A DNA stretch of 44,155 nt from the sequence record MK931440.1. One strand, 5' to 3'. Positions 3,879-42,539 of this stretch are shown piece by piece. The stretch's first letter is position 1. The number at the start of each line of letters is the position of its first letter. The notes beneath the pieces were generated by a model that saw nothing but the letters and a program-made list of their open reading frames with translations, ran no database searches and had not been told where the DNA came from. The position numbers and the translations under genes were made by a program. Source of the DNA: Escherichia phage Shashou.

Positions 3879-3905
3879 TTTATGCCTCCTGTTTAAGTTA
3901 ACTGA

Positions 3906-5486: not shown

Positions 5487-5510
5487 AAAGCCCCGAAAGG
5501 GGCTTTTTAG
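5487..5510 (+). terminator. intrinsic terminator
   Basis: aagcccc-gaaa-ggggctt followed by TTTT. Confidence 0.65.
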
Positions 5511-5571
5511 CGCCTGTGATTATTCCAGTTATTCCACTCAATTGTAAATGTTGGAATAAACTATTCGAATA

Positions 5572-5600
5572 GTTGACTTTTCACTAAAAATGTGCTAAGC
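5572..5600 (+). promoter_or_regulatory. sigma70-like promoter TTGACT-N17-(TGc)TAAGCT upstream of spanin/scaffold/capsid genes
   Basis: -35 and extended -10 with 17-nt spacer; near-identical copy at 37502..37530. Confidence 0.5.
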
Positions 5601-5800
5601 TCCACCTGAGCTTGTGAAGTATGAACAAGCGACCGCGGCGCGGGCAGGTAACGGAGCGGGACGTAAGTCCTGAGTGTAGTTACGCTGACGCGTTCGGAAG
5701 GGCCATACTCTATTGCTTGTGTAAAAAGTAACTGGTTTACTGAGATTACGCCGTTTCTATGTTTAAATGATAAGGACTAGCGCCCAGCTTTAAGGCTGGG
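5601..5800 (+). ncRNA. candidate noncoding leader/small RNA (copy 1)
   Basis: No ORF; conserved 41-nt 5' element with hairpin gcttgt-N9-acaagc shared with 37531..37571; ends near hairpin cccagc-tttaag-gctggg about 5771..5793. Confidence 0.3.
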
Positions 5801-5825
5801 CTTTACTTATCGAGAAAGGAGAAAC

Positions 5826-6212
5826 ATGAATCCTAAAGCAACTGTCGTAGCTGGAGCATGTTTCATCCTCCTGACATACGGCTACGGAATCTACCAGTAT
5901 CGCAGCGGCTGGAACGAAGGCCGGGCGAATCTCGTTTCGCAGCAACAGCAGGAAGCACAGGCTGAGTTAGCGAAGAAAACACAACGGCAGCAGCAGGACG
6001 AATCTAAGGCCGCCGCTGCTGACAACGAAGGCAAGACGAAATCAGAGGTGATTACCCGTGAAGTCGTTAAGTACATTAAAACGCCTGGCCGCAGCGTGTG
6101 CACTTTCGACGATGCTCGCGTCCTGCTCAAGTCCCACGCCGTTGCCAACGCCAATTCCATCCCCGGATACGACGATGATGCAGCCGCCGTGCAAACTGGC
6201 ACCGCCAAGTAG
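5826..6212 (+). CDS. i-spanin (Rz-like)
   Basis: N-terminal TM segment (ATVVAGACFILLTYGYGIY) followed by Q/E/K-rich coiled-coil; overlapped by lipoprotein ORF in +1 frame. Confidence 0.6.
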   Translation: MNPKATVVAGACFILLTYGYGIYQYRSGWNEGRANLVSQQQQEAQAELAKKTQRQQQDESKAAAADNEGKTKSEVITREVVKYIKTPGRSVCTFDDARVLLKSHAVANANSIPGYDDDAAAVQTGTAK

Positions 6213-7107: not shown

Positions 7108-8157
7108 ATGGCAATTACCACTATCGGCGATATCGTAACTGGCAACGTACCCGTCCTTCTGTCCTATATGACTGAGGACCCGGTAGAGAAAACTGCGTTC
7201 TTCCAGTCCGGCATCCTGGCCCCGACCCCGTACGCTGCTGAGATTGCTCGCGGTCCGTCCAACGTCGCTAATATTCCTTTCTGGAAAGCGATTGATACCT
7301 CTATCGAGCCGAACTACTCGAACGATGTATATCAGGACATCGCCACTCCACGCAACGTACAAACCGGTGAGATGATGGCACGCGTCGCTTATCTGAACGA
7401 AGGCTTCGGACAGGCAGACCTGACTGTTGAACTGACCAGCCAGAACCCGCTGCAATCTGTTGCCGCTCGTCTGGATAACTTCTGGCAGCGTCAGGCACAG
7501 CGCCGTCTGATTGCTACCGCTCTCGGCCTGTATAACGACAACGTAACGGCAACCGATGCTTACCACGAGCAGAACGACATGGTTATCGACGTGTCTGCGA
7601 CTCTGGGCTTCGATTCTGGCGCGTTCATTGACGCTACCCAAACCATGGGTGACGCGCTGATGGGTAATGGTGGTGAAGTGCTGGGGGCAATCGCGATGCA
7701 TAGCTTCGTGTATGCGCAGGCGCGTAAGCAACAGCTTATCGACTTCATCCGCGATGCCGACAACAACACCATGTTCGCCACCTACCAGGGCTACCGCGTG
7801 ATTGTTGACGACAGCATGACCGTAGTTGGTACTGGCTCTAGCCGTAAGTTCATCTCCATCATCTTCGGCAACGGCGCTATCGGTTATGGCGAAGGCAATC
7901 CGTCCAATCCGCTGGAATACGAGCGTGAAGCGTCCCGCGGTAACGGCGGTGGTGTTGAAACCCTGTGGACCCGTAAGACCTGGTTGCTGCATCCGCTGGG
8001 TTACAGCTTCACCAGCGCGGTAATCACCGGTAACGGTACTGAAACCGTAGCCCGCTCTGCTTCCTGGCAGGACCTGGCGAACGCCTCCAACTGGAACCGC
8101 GTTGTTGACCGTAAGCATGTGCCGATTGCCTTCCTGGTAACTGGTGTAAAGGCTTAA
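7108..8157 (+). CDS. major capsid protein
   Basis: 349-aa ORF after scaffold, followed by strong intrinsic terminator; typical position and size. Confidence 0.8.
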   Translation: MAITTIGDIVTGNVPVLLSYMTEDPVEKTAFFQSGILAPTPYAAEIARGPSNVANIPFWKAIDTSIEPNYSNDVYQDIATPRNVQTGEMMARVAYLNEGFGQADLTVELTSQNPLQSVAARLDNFWQRQAQRRLIATALGLYNDNVTATDAYHEQNDMVIDVSATLGFDSGAFIDATQTMGDALMGNGGEVLGAIAMHSFVYAQARKQQLIDFIRDADNNTMFATYQGYRVIVDDSMTVVGTGSSRKFISIIFGNGAIGYGEGNPSNPLEYEREASRGNGGGVETLWTRKTWLLHPLGYSFTSAVITGNGTETVARSASWQDLANASNWNRVVDRKHVPIAFLVTGVKA

Positions 8158-37002: not shown

Positions 37003-37215
37003 TTATTTATCGCCTGCAAACCACGCGTGCGCAGAATCATAGAAACGACATTTACTTAATACCTCGATTGGCATCTTAATAATGCGCGTCGGTTCCGACA
37101 AATGATTAGGCTTACATATTTCTGCATAGAATCCGCTGTCAGTAATTTCTGACGCAAACTTAAACCAGTATTTAACTTTACCGTCTTCAAAGTAACAACC
37201 CATACGCCCAATCAT
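37003..37215 (-). CDS. hypothetical protein
   Basis: 70-aa ORF, ATGA overlap with upstream HTH gene. Confidence 0.45.
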   Translation of the reverse strand: MIGRMGCYFEDGKVKYWFKFASEITDSGFYAEICKPNHLSEPTRIIKMPIEVLSKCRFYDSAHAWFAGDK

Positions 37216-37394
37216 TTCACGTTCTCCTTAATCCATGCTTCAACTTTATTACGGTCAAATGTACCCGGTAAACGGCGGCCCATTACTTTAATACAGCAGT
37301 CAGGGAATTTACCACTGCGCAGCCAGTTATTAATTGTCTGACGTGTCACACCGATACGTTCTGCTACTTCATTCTGGGTCATGTAATGTTGCAT
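37212..37394 (-). CDS. HTH DNA-binding protein (Cro/AlpA-like, putative)
   Basis: Start at Met25 of track ORF with AGGAG RBS; HTH MTQNEVAERIGVTRQTINNWLRSG; first gene of leftward operon. Confidence 0.6.
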   Translation of the reverse strand: MQHYMTQNEVAERIGVTRQTINNWLRSGKFPDCCIKVMGRRLPGTFDRNKVEAWIKENVK

Positions 37395-37501
37395 TTTTAT
37401 ATCTCCTGTTTGTTTGGTGAAGCTGAGTATAGGATAGCGGGAATGTAAAAGCAACCAAAACGCCACACAAAGTTACTAAGATACAAAAGATGCTTCAGGT
37501 A

Positions 37502-37530
37502 TTGACTTTTACTAAGAAATATGGTAAGCT
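37502..37530 (+). promoter_or_regulatory. sigma70-like promoter TTGACT-N17-(TGg)TAAGCT
   Basis: Paralog of promoter at 5572; followed by the same conserved leader. Confidence 0.5.
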
Positions 37531-37790
37531 CAGCCTGAGCTTGTGAAGTATGAACAAGCGACCGCGGCGCGCGGCAGGCGAAACGAGCACGTGTAGCGTG
37601 TGGAGTGAGGCTCGCTAGCGCGTTTGGGAGGCCCCAAGTCTATTGTAATTCCAGCCTAAGTAGCTAAGTTACTGATTTGCCGTAGGTTAGAACCGCCAGC
37701 TCACTCACTCACTCTTGGTGCCTTCGGCACCACGTTCGTTTCGTTTCGCTCGCTACCCCCTTAAACGAAAGAATCACAACGGCAACGTAA
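37531..37790 (+). ncRNA. candidate noncoding leader/small RNA (copy 2)
   Basis: No ORF of 60 aa or more; same 5' element; contains UUCG-loop hairpin ggtgcc-ttcg-gcacc and short tandem repeats. Confidence 0.3.
37699..37754 (+). repeat. short tandem repeats (ctcactcactcactc; cgtttcgtttcg) flanking a tetraloop hairpin
   Basis: Direct repeats visible in the noncoding region between divergent operons. Confidence 0.5.
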
Positions 37791-37798
37791 CTAATCTC

Positions 37799-37827
37799 TT
37801 GCACACCCCAACATAATAGGATACTAT
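37799..37827 (+). promoter_or_regulatory. promoter TTGCAC-N17-TACTAT with palindrome AATAG-gata-CTATT
   Basis: Palindrome (37815..37828) overlaps spacer and -10; drives 37862 gene block. Confidence 0.5.
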
Positions 37828-37861
37828 TCACTTATCGAAACGAGACAGAGGAGTGAGGGCT

Positions 37862-38053
37862 ATGTTTAAGAAGGGTCAGTTGGTTAAATACTCCGACGAT
37901 AAACACGGCATAATTGAATTAAAATCTGCTTTATTTCCAGGAGAGTACGTAGTTACCATGCAAAATGTGAGAGGAGTAAATTCACAAATATACGTAGCGG
38001 AGGAGAACTTAAAACTAATCGGCAACAATTTTAAATTCAAAGAGGCGAAGTGA
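37862..38053 (+). CDS. hypothetical protein
   Basis: ATG after RBS gaggag; AT-rich. Confidence 0.5.
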   Translation: MFKKGQLVKYSDDKHGIIELKSALFPGEYVVTMQNVRGVNSQIYVAEENLKLIGNNFKFKEAK

Positions 38054-42385: not shown

Positions 42386-42456
42386 CATTTGACACCTGAG
42401 ACTAATCCGACGATACTTAAATCACCTCCTGCTCCATCCCTCTGCTCTCCAGTTTT

Positions 42457-42510: not shown

Positions 42511-42539
42511 TTGACTATTATTCTGACACCAATTATATT
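42511..42539 (+). promoter_or_regulatory. sigma70-like promoter TTGACT-N17-TATATT
   Basis: Near-consensus hexamers with 17-nt spacer, downstream of two terminators after the endolysin gene. Confidence 0.5.

Follow-up and report, generated by a model that had tools for sequence, protein, structure and literature searches.

The DNA analyzed here is a 44,155-nucleotide (nt) stretch from Escherichia phage Shashou (record MK931440.1), referred to throughout as the window. Our subject is the interval at 37502–37852, which carries the second of two copies of a structured leader RNA. The window is a Kagunavirus genome by sequence comparison: the 501 nt around the interval are 99.8% identical to Escherichia phages Sciku and Snoke and have matches in about 250 records from phages of Escherichia and Salmonella within the subfamily Guernseyvirinae. 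In the layout taken from the Sciku annotation, the stretch from about 37.4 kb down to 24.7 kb holds leftward replication genes. The rightward side starts at 37.86 kb with small open reading frames (ORFs), followed by holins and endolysin and then by further small ORFs, which lead on to terminase, portal, and head morphogenesis genes, given a permuted or concatemeric genome. A terminator at 5490 is followed by spanins, scaffold, capsid, and head–tail genes. The original prediction, made from the letters of the window, placed the interval between divergent early operons. The leftward and rightward blocks are there, but "early" was an assumption, as the rightward unit continues into lysis and packaging genes. 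No ORF of 60 amino acids or more lies between the start of a leftward helix-turn-helix (HTH) gene (37394, minus strand) and the ATG at 37862, as had been stated; only ORFs of 31–40 amino acids occur.

What looked like a repeat-rich intergenic region is separable into modules, namely a promoter, a leader core, a closed hairpin domain, and an operator-promoter. We read the interval as a compound rightward transcription-control region, and this reading is well supported, as is the order of its four parts: a class I promoter, a leader RNA of about 105 nt, a second RNA domain with a GC hairpin, and a class II promoter/operator with a ribosome-binding site (RBS). Among nine distinct loci that carry copy 2, the promoter averages 91% identity and the class II promoter region 93%, against 79% in the core, 62% in the repeat and hairpin stretch, and 44% in the first ORF.

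The class I sigma-70 promoter of copy 2 (37502–37530, plus strand) was recognized from its sequence and is a paralogue of 5573–5601. It consists of a -35 element TTGACT (37502–37507), a 17-nt spacer with an extended -10 TGg (37522–37524), and a -10 element TAAGCT (37525–37530). From this arrangement we infer a transcription start at about 37536–37538. In phage fBC-Eco01 the same promoter has been predicted as a "host promoter." That this is a second promoter-leader copy had been predicted and holds: 37502–37571 is 87% identical to 5573–5642 (repeat D2). By covariance model the homology of the two copies reaches about 120 nt, with the promoter included in the repeat. It is well supported by these sequence comparisons that the copy-2 promoter and core are a duplicate of the leader that heads the spanin–scaffold–capsid operon.

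The leader core of copy 2, a "K-B" variant, occupies 37537–37645 (plus strand). Homologues were gathered from IMG/VR by exact-core scans and from GenBank phages (alignment A1), and across them the first ~105 transcribed nt align well. RNAalifold resolves a short hairpin (P1) and a long irregular hairpin (P2), and the minimum-energy fold of the copy-2 core gives the same pair; a conserved 3′ tail, UCUAUUG (37639–37645), completes the core. A covariance model (R1) has exactly two matches in the window, 5600–5719 (147 bits) and 37529–37649 (104 bits, E = 4e-26). P1 (37539–37559, plus strand) reads GCUUGU-GAAGUAUGA-ACAAGC. It is nearly invariant in leaders of the K type, one of two alleles described below, and is hence uninformative there, with independent U-A to U·G changes occurring. 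In a divergent "G" variant of copy 2, P1 is an 8-bp stem with a GAUA loop.

P2 (37562–37627, plus strand; apical stem-loop 37587–37601) carries the comparative evidence. Its base (CCG-C-GGCGC/GCGUU-UGG) is conserved in sequence, and its distal part varies while pairing is kept. Structure prediction with covariation had been proposed as a check on the element. When it was run on 32 distinct sequences (alignment A2), 94.7% of P2 cells were paired, against 33–42% with the 3′ partners slid, and there were 51 double-change cells against 15 in column shuffles. Pair types at individual positions include CG/UA/AU at 40–102, UA/AU/GC at 51–90, and AU/UG/GC/CG at 66–74, and the apical stem shows up to four pair types. 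Four divergent leader types each fold independently into P1 and P2. The suggestion of a regulatory RNA is thus borne out to the extent that the first ~105 transcribed bases form a two-hairpin RNA supported by covariation, in a family conserved across Guernseyvirinae. The density of structure that had been claimed for the interval finds comparative support as RNA folds and none in energy: the whole 330 nt has a folding energy z of -0.9, no better than shuffled sequence. The evidence for structure is therefore comparative, not energetic.

The element is an RNA and not a small gene, because single-base indels between variants, in several alignment columns, shift the frames of the short ORFs annotated over it, while substitutions in its stems are compensatory. 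GenBank hypothetical coding sequences that lie over the leader include Sciku_007, Sciku_053, fBCEco01_09, Jersey gp08, and QA052_gp08, with annotated spans at window 5620–5730 (plus) and 37530–37637 (minus), L181:455–571, L182:7265–7456, and L211:264–383 (L numbers denote our locus records). By sequence comparison these are probably annotation artefacts. An arginine-rich peptide (MNKRPRR...) encoded in the leader was considered and rejected, as its frame is not conserved. Three further candidates within the RNA were also set aside. A sigma-dependent pause element in the P1 loop (AAGUAU, which fits NANNAT, as in putL) is absent from the G and J types, the G type and several J sequences do not keep a closing helix CCU/AGG proposed by RNAalifold, and variants do not maintain an alternative in which, when copy 1 is folded as a single sequence, the P1 loop pairs with CAUACU.

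Copy 1 forms the whole 5′ untranslated region (UTR) of the spanin–scaffold–capsid operon (5608–5825, plus strand; the R1 match of 147 bits). Its promoter (5560–5601, plus strand) has the -35 element TTGACT (5573–5578), TGc, and the -10 element TAAGCT (5596–5601). Within the leader, all on the plus strand, are the core (5608–5715), a conserved hairpin (5782–5801), and the 3′ strand of a predicted long-range helix (5805–5814). Among 31 variants, the upstream region and promoter are 93–95% conserved, and the leader has a mean identity of 96–98% versus 85% for the first 84 nt of the spanin gene. The hairpin at 5782–5801 shows compensatory changes, with A-U, C-G, and U-A at one pair in the K allele and G-C and A-U in the J allele.

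When full K and J leaders are folded together, RNAalifold predicts a helix that joins the 5′ end of the leader, using P1 nucleotides, to the stretch between the hairpin and the Shine–Dalgarno sequence. This long-range helix, predicted over window 5606–5830 and L182:7298–7505, is 99.2% paired against 38–72% when slid; five of its eight core pairs differ between K and J and all are paired, statistics that come from a single K-versus-J contrast. The helix excludes P1, and its 3′ strand lies downstream of the hairpin at 5782–5801. Either the leader would switch conformation, or the ~205-nt UTR would be one closed fold with the hairpin as an internal helix. In copy 1, moreover, the conserved UAUU downstream of P2 is immediately followed by a second occurrence of the P1 5′ half: GCUUGUG occurs twice in K (window 5611–5617 and 5716–5722) and GCUUUCAG twice in J (L182 ~7310–7317 and ~7400–7407). 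Between alleles this repeat and P1 change in step; copy 2 lacks the repeat.

The 271-nt copy-1 region, from promoter to spanin ATG, was found in 180 phage records and is at least 95% identical in 178 of them. This K type occurs in both E. coli Kagunaviruses and Salmonella Jerseyviruses. Phage Jersey has no BLAST match to it, yet its corresponding locus gives an R1 match (39 bits, E = 8e-9), a divergent homologue whose own promoter is TTGACT-N17-TGtTACGCT and whose P1 has 5 bp (ACGCU-UUC-AGCGU), with a long P2. A "tRNA-Ser" annotated near the Jersey-type leader was dismissed; it is on the opposite strand, upstream of the leader, and ARAGORN finds no tRNA there. The J allele is present in 270 further records, giving 450 for K and J together. 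Capsid proteins at least 80% identical are found in about 460 records, roughly the same number, which makes copy 1 all but universal in the subfamily.

The leader thus exists as two discrete alleles, each 90–100% conserved internally, in phages whose capsid proteins are about 91% identical. The base and flanks of P2 (ACCGCGGNGC...GCNUUCGGAAGGG...UAUUG) are conserved across both. In a comparison of seven genomes (the window, L064, L065, and L213 with K; L182, L214, and L215 with J), no distant gene co-varies with the allele; only the physically linked upstream Hoc/Ig-like gene does. Copy 2 is present in 42 of the 180 K-type records and absent from the Jerseyviruses examined, VSt10 and Jersey. 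Genome and metagenome scans, in which the P2 base and flank signature was followed by an R1 filter, returned the element only on phage-like contigs of ~44 kb and on two contaminants, with no prophage or host copy. Two loose search patterns gave mostly chance matches, which the covariance model removed. The two contaminants are a "Bacillota" contig from a metagenome-assembled genome and a 738-bp scaffold of a Taishania pollutisoli assembly (L221 and L228). Both carry the element with phage flanks and look like phage contigs that contaminate bacterial assemblies or were mis-binned into them.

Downstream of the copy-2 core, minimum-energy folds predict a second RNA domain (37667–37792, plus strand) closed by a long-range stem of 13 bp. 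The stem pairs AGUUAC (37667–37672) with GUAACU (37787–37792) and UUGCCGU (37677–37683) with ACGGCAA (37779–37785). The UUGCCGU/ACGGCAA part is recovered in minimum-energy folds of the window and six relatives, whose interiors differ, and one C-to-U change in L071 keeps a wobble pair. Both strands are conserved in sequence, so the stem provides no compensatory proof.

Inside this domain is a C-rich, G-poor tandem repeat, CTCA x3.8 (37700–37714, plus strand). Of the short tandem repeats mentioned in the original prediction, this is the one that stands, as Tandem Repeats Finder reports no other. Its copy number differs in L005, and it is absent from L021-type and G-type loci. The repeat is followed by the GC hairpin (37716–37732, plus strand), GGUGCC-UUC-GGCACC, and then by CGUUCGUUUCGUUUCG, a weak U tract. 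The hairpin had been described as a UUCG tetraloop, which it is not. It is a 7-bp stem with a UUC triloop, or alternatively 5 bp with a 5-nt loop, and not a canonical cUUCGg. At the same position, F/G-type loci have GGGGUGGGC-UAAN-GCCCACCC in a longer stem, then UUUU, in place of the window hairpin, and VSt10 has GGGCAGG-UUUUAGA-CCUGCCC, then UUUAGUU. The position of the GC hairpin is conserved and its sequence is not, because unrelated GC hairpins stand there in relatives. VSt10 and the F/G-type loci have better U tracts than the window, where they are weak.

The copy-2 locus of Salmonella virus VSt10 (L065:36714–37682) is a gene-free region of ~970 nt with a different TTGACA promoter, hairpins of its own, the terminator-like GGGCAGG/CCUGCCC, and a GC-rich stretch at 37290–37440. 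Rfam gives no match there, and another uncharacterised RNA may lie in this region. Back in the window, the minimum-energy fold makes the CUCA repeats (37700–37715) and GUUUCGUUUCG (37738–37748) complementary to 37837–37858, in the 5′ UTR and RBS of the first rightward ORF. Such pairing could mask the RBS in transcripts from the upstream promoter and not in class II transcripts. The fold that pairs the CUCA repeats with the RBS is not better than shuffles.

The interval ends with the class II phage promoter/operator (37799–37830, plus strand). The TTGCAC-N17-TACTAT noted originally was confirmed at 37799–37827 and lies within a repeated motif. The site holds the 18-nt motif ATAATAGGATACTATTCA (37813–37830) and the palindrome AATAG-N4-CTATT, which lies over the TACTAT -10. 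The motif occurs seven times in the window with up to three mismatches, versus 0 expected by chance, at 3903 (minus), 14254 (minus), 31460 (plus), 33919 (plus), 33963 (plus), 37813 (plus), and 38746 (plus). From its sequence it looks like a phage-specific promoter combined with an operator for a dimeric regulator. The same 18 nt is the PHIRE motif of fBC-Eco01, where the sites were called "phage RNA polymerase promoters" (PMC9825357). In the Guernseyvirinae records examined, no gene is annotated as an RNA polymerase. At copy 1, a perfect palindrome, ACTATTCGAATAGT (5560–5573), abuts the -35 element and is centred about -41.5 from the predicted start. The half-sites of the seven-copy motif recur in it with their order inverted, and copy 2 has no such palindrome. 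A single regulator might act as repressor at the class II promoters and as activator at the morphogenesis promoter.

Beyond the class II site lie the 5′ UTR and RBS (GAGGAG) of the first rightward ORF (37832–37864, plus strand; ATG at 37862), a stretch that begins ACUUAUCGAA. The ORF matches PHROG 12538, of unknown function. On the other side of the interval, the divergent HTH gene (37212–37394, minus strand) encodes a 60-amino-acid HTH_17 or excisionase-like DNA-binding protein (PF12728, E = 1.6e-8; PHROG 66), with no significant sequence similarity to AlpA, Q, or any solved antiterminator structure. Farther along the rightward unit, between the endolysin gene and the last small-ORF block, there are two near-consensus sigma-70 promoter-like sites with 10 of 12 matches (42389–42417 and 42511–42539, plus strand).

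Searches of Rfam gave no match at the gathering threshold across the whole window, and only chance-level, unrelated ones for both leaders at E up to 10. We found no description of the leader RNA in the searchable literature. The element represents a previously undescribed structured leader RNA family and is best filed as a promoter-proximal cis-acting leader RNA.

What might such a leader do? Only the promoter and the P1/P2 core are common to two otherwise different 5′ UTRs, and the core therefore looks portable, a module that would work wherever it is transcribed. By analogy with the put RNAs of phage HK022, we tentatively favor a cis-acting role in transcription elongation and read-through, while holding it at somewhat below even chance. 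Prior work has shown that HK022 has two promoter-proximal put RNA copies that make polymerase resistant to pausing and termination without a phage protein (PMC9378689). In the proposed mechanism, the strong extended -10 sigma-70 promoter would transcribe the ~105-nt leader, and the core would act on its own transcription complex or transcript immediately once made. RNA polymerase would become resistant to pausing and termination, would pass the downstream hairpin, and would resist Rho on the 220–330-nt untranslated leader. It would then read through intrinsic terminators inside the long rightward operons, as with put, without a dedicated phage protein. Both copies are on the coding strand and head long rightward units that contain terminator-like hairpins (5782, 8173, and 12247; 37716 and 38617), and the length of both leaders, together with their lack of translation, would leave them exposed to Rho. 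A scan of 23 small proteins against Pfam and/or PHROGs, many of them of unknown function, found no recognisable N or Q and no other antiterminator family. This result, together with the lack of a co-varying distant gene, is compatible with an RNA that uses host factors only.

Several observations weigh heavily against read-through as the function. A put model (R2, built from putL and putR; alignment A4) recovers both put sites at 91–96 bits and finds nothing in the window or phage Jersey; its best score in 37450–37900 with filters off is 1.2 bits (E = 1.7). In the reverse direction R1 finds nothing in HK022, and membership of the put family is excluded. There is no boxA (GCUCUUUAACAA-like) within three mismatches in 5600–5830 or 37530–37860. 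The U tracts of the hairpins are weak (UUUACUU; CGUUCGUUUCG), so termination may not occur there at all, and in both copies the predicted folds place the hairpin inside a longer-range helix, which suggests an internal helix and not a terminator. An independent promoter follows copy 2, so the next gene needs no read-through. About three quarters of K-type phages do without copy 2, as do VSt10 and Jersey. Timing would also pose a difficulty if a strong, unregulated promoter drove constitutive antitermination toward the lysis genes, and the sole Kagunavirus RNA-seq paper gives gene-level timing only (PMC12645636).

Other explanations compete with this one. Copy 2 could be a stand-alone small RNA gene, whose discrete ~200-nt product ends at or near the GC hairpin and acts in trans, as a decoy for a factor that binds the late leader or as a base-pairing regulator, leaving the downstream genes to the class II promoter. 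The layout of promoter, structured RNA, GC hairpin, and independent promoter fits this, as does a hairpin kept in position while its sequence is replaced; VSt10 even has a different promoter and leader, yet a hairpin followed by UUUAGUU at the same locus. The lambda PR′-tR′ 6S transcript and StxS are precedents. We nevertheless consider a small RNA gene unlikely, given the poor U tract after the window's hairpin and a conserved closing stem that requires sequence 3′ of it. A seed for base pairing would most naturally be sought in the P1 loop, yet the G and J types do not conserve it, and copy 1, the ancestral one, is no free-standing gene but a 5′ UTR joined to its operon. The core could instead govern RNA processing or stability, with P2 or the long-range helix of copy 1 serving as an RNase III or RNase E signal or as a 5′ stabiliser that determines where the long rightward mRNAs begin and what half-life they have. 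P2 comprises ~22–25 bp of helix, broken up by internal loops, and is promoter-proximal in two operons, much as the T7 RNase III site R0.3 lies just downstream of the T7 early promoters, and the 5′ end of copy 1 pairs just before the Shine–Dalgarno sequence, which would permit excision of the leader. We rate this as improbable: RNase III needs little sequence conservation, whereas K and J show almost no variation in the P2 base and flanks (ACCGCGG...UUCGGAAGGG...UAUUG), and the long-range helix is just 8–10 bp. To a conformational switch, be it riboswitch-like or an attenuator responsive to protein or temperature, we assign a similarly low probability. Here P1 and the long-range helix would alternate to control Shine–Dalgarno access or the hairpin. 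The long-range helix of copy 1 does use P1 nucleotides and is kept in K and J despite the differences at five of eight core pairs, conserved loops and junctions with variable stems are typical of ligand- or protein-binding RNAs, and a small HTH protein is encoded beside copy 2. Against this, the expression platforms of the two copies are unrelated and only the core is common, the would-be 3′ partner in copy 2 belongs to the class II promoter region and is present in phages without the core, the statistics from one K-versus-J contrast are weak, and no known riboswitch class matches.

Two further explanations were weighed. The promoter and first transcribed bases could be a loading site, in DNA or RNA, for a Q-, AlpA-, or N-like protein antiterminator, such as the 60-amino-acid HTH_17 protein whose gene adjoins copy 2; AlpA is reported to be a small HTH antiterminator that loads at a promoter (PMC9371919), which speaks for this idea. 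The near invariance of the promoter spacer and first ~45 transcribed bases in the DNA of K-type copies fits as well. We find it hard to credit, however. Neither a Q, N, or AlpA similarity among the small proteins scanned nor, in the seven genomes, a distant gene that follows the K/J allele was found, the P1 sequence and promoter spacer are wholly different in the J type though the HTH gene family is common, and covariation indicates selection at the level of RNA. A replication origin, alone or overlapping the RNA, was also part of the original prediction, and we now give it almost no weight. The interval adjoins the primase–helicase block at the cumulative GC-skew minimum (37–38 kb), falls in the lowest-GC 2-kb window (0.44), and contains short repeats and hairpins. 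The skew minimum cannot discriminate, because the coding strand switches at the same place. There are no iterons beyond the CTCA repeat and no DnaA-box-like site in the interval, its repeat-rich part is the least conserved (62%) with different content in relatives, and the copy-2 core is absent from most relatives.

Independently of what it does, the leader is an unannotated RNA with covariation support, and its neighboring genes are less conserved than it is. Some 450 sequenced Kagunavirus and Jerseyvirus genomes carry it, and many of these phages are candidates for use in phage therapy or food safety. Taking the read-through mechanism a step further, the P1/P2 core could be a second, evolutionarily independent class of protein-independent polymerase-modifying RNA that drives the morphogenesis operon across the subfamily, a proposition we regard as doubtful. 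Were it true, K and J would be two natural solutions to binding the same surface of E. coli and Salmonella polymerase, and some phages of the subfamily would have copied the core to a second promoter.

Several known systems resemble the leader in part. T7 RNase III sites such as R0.3 are likewise long irregular hairpins, paralogous within one genome, with the first just downstream of early promoters; P2 differs from them in the strong sequence conservation of its base and flanks. The lambda PR′-tR′ 6S region (StxS in Stx phages) also has a constitutive promoter, a ~200-nt leader, and a hairpin upstream of lysis and morphogenesis genes, and in both cases a short transcript could arise. In the window, by contrast, no Q-family protein was found and the leader itself is a covarying structured RNA, which is not a known feature of the lambda 6S leader. 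Lambda nut/N and rrn boxA share the promoter-proximal position, the duplication at two operon heads, and a hairpin with conserved single-stranded flanks; the leader differs in having no boxA, no GNRA-like boxB, and no recognised N-like arginine-rich protein. EAR of Bacillales, conAn, and the Tn916 elements are also structured RNAs in or ahead of long operons with internal terminators, with different hosts and folds and no Rfam family reached at gathering score here. Inspection by eye gave no match to ops/RfaH or to CRISPR-repeat mimicry.

The closest functional comparison is with HK022 put, whose action is blocked by mutations in the zinc-binding domain of the polymerase β′ subunit (rpoC). The put fold is ~70 nt, whereas the leader is ~105 nt with one short and one very long hairpin (P2, ~66 nt). 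The leader also belongs to virulent siphoviruses, and its universal copy heads a morphogenesis (late) operon and not early ones. Like put, it is phage-encoded in two paralogous, co-oriented copies just downstream of sigma-70 promoters at the heads of multi-terminator operons, both copies starting ~7 nt after a TTGACT-N17-TGnTAAGCT promoter and facing long rightward units. Like put, too, it consists of two stem-loops with bulges and internal loops, with no dedicated phage protein evident. If the leader does act on the transcription complex, it would be only the second RNA from an enterobacterial phage, after HK022 put, that reprograms host polymerase alone.

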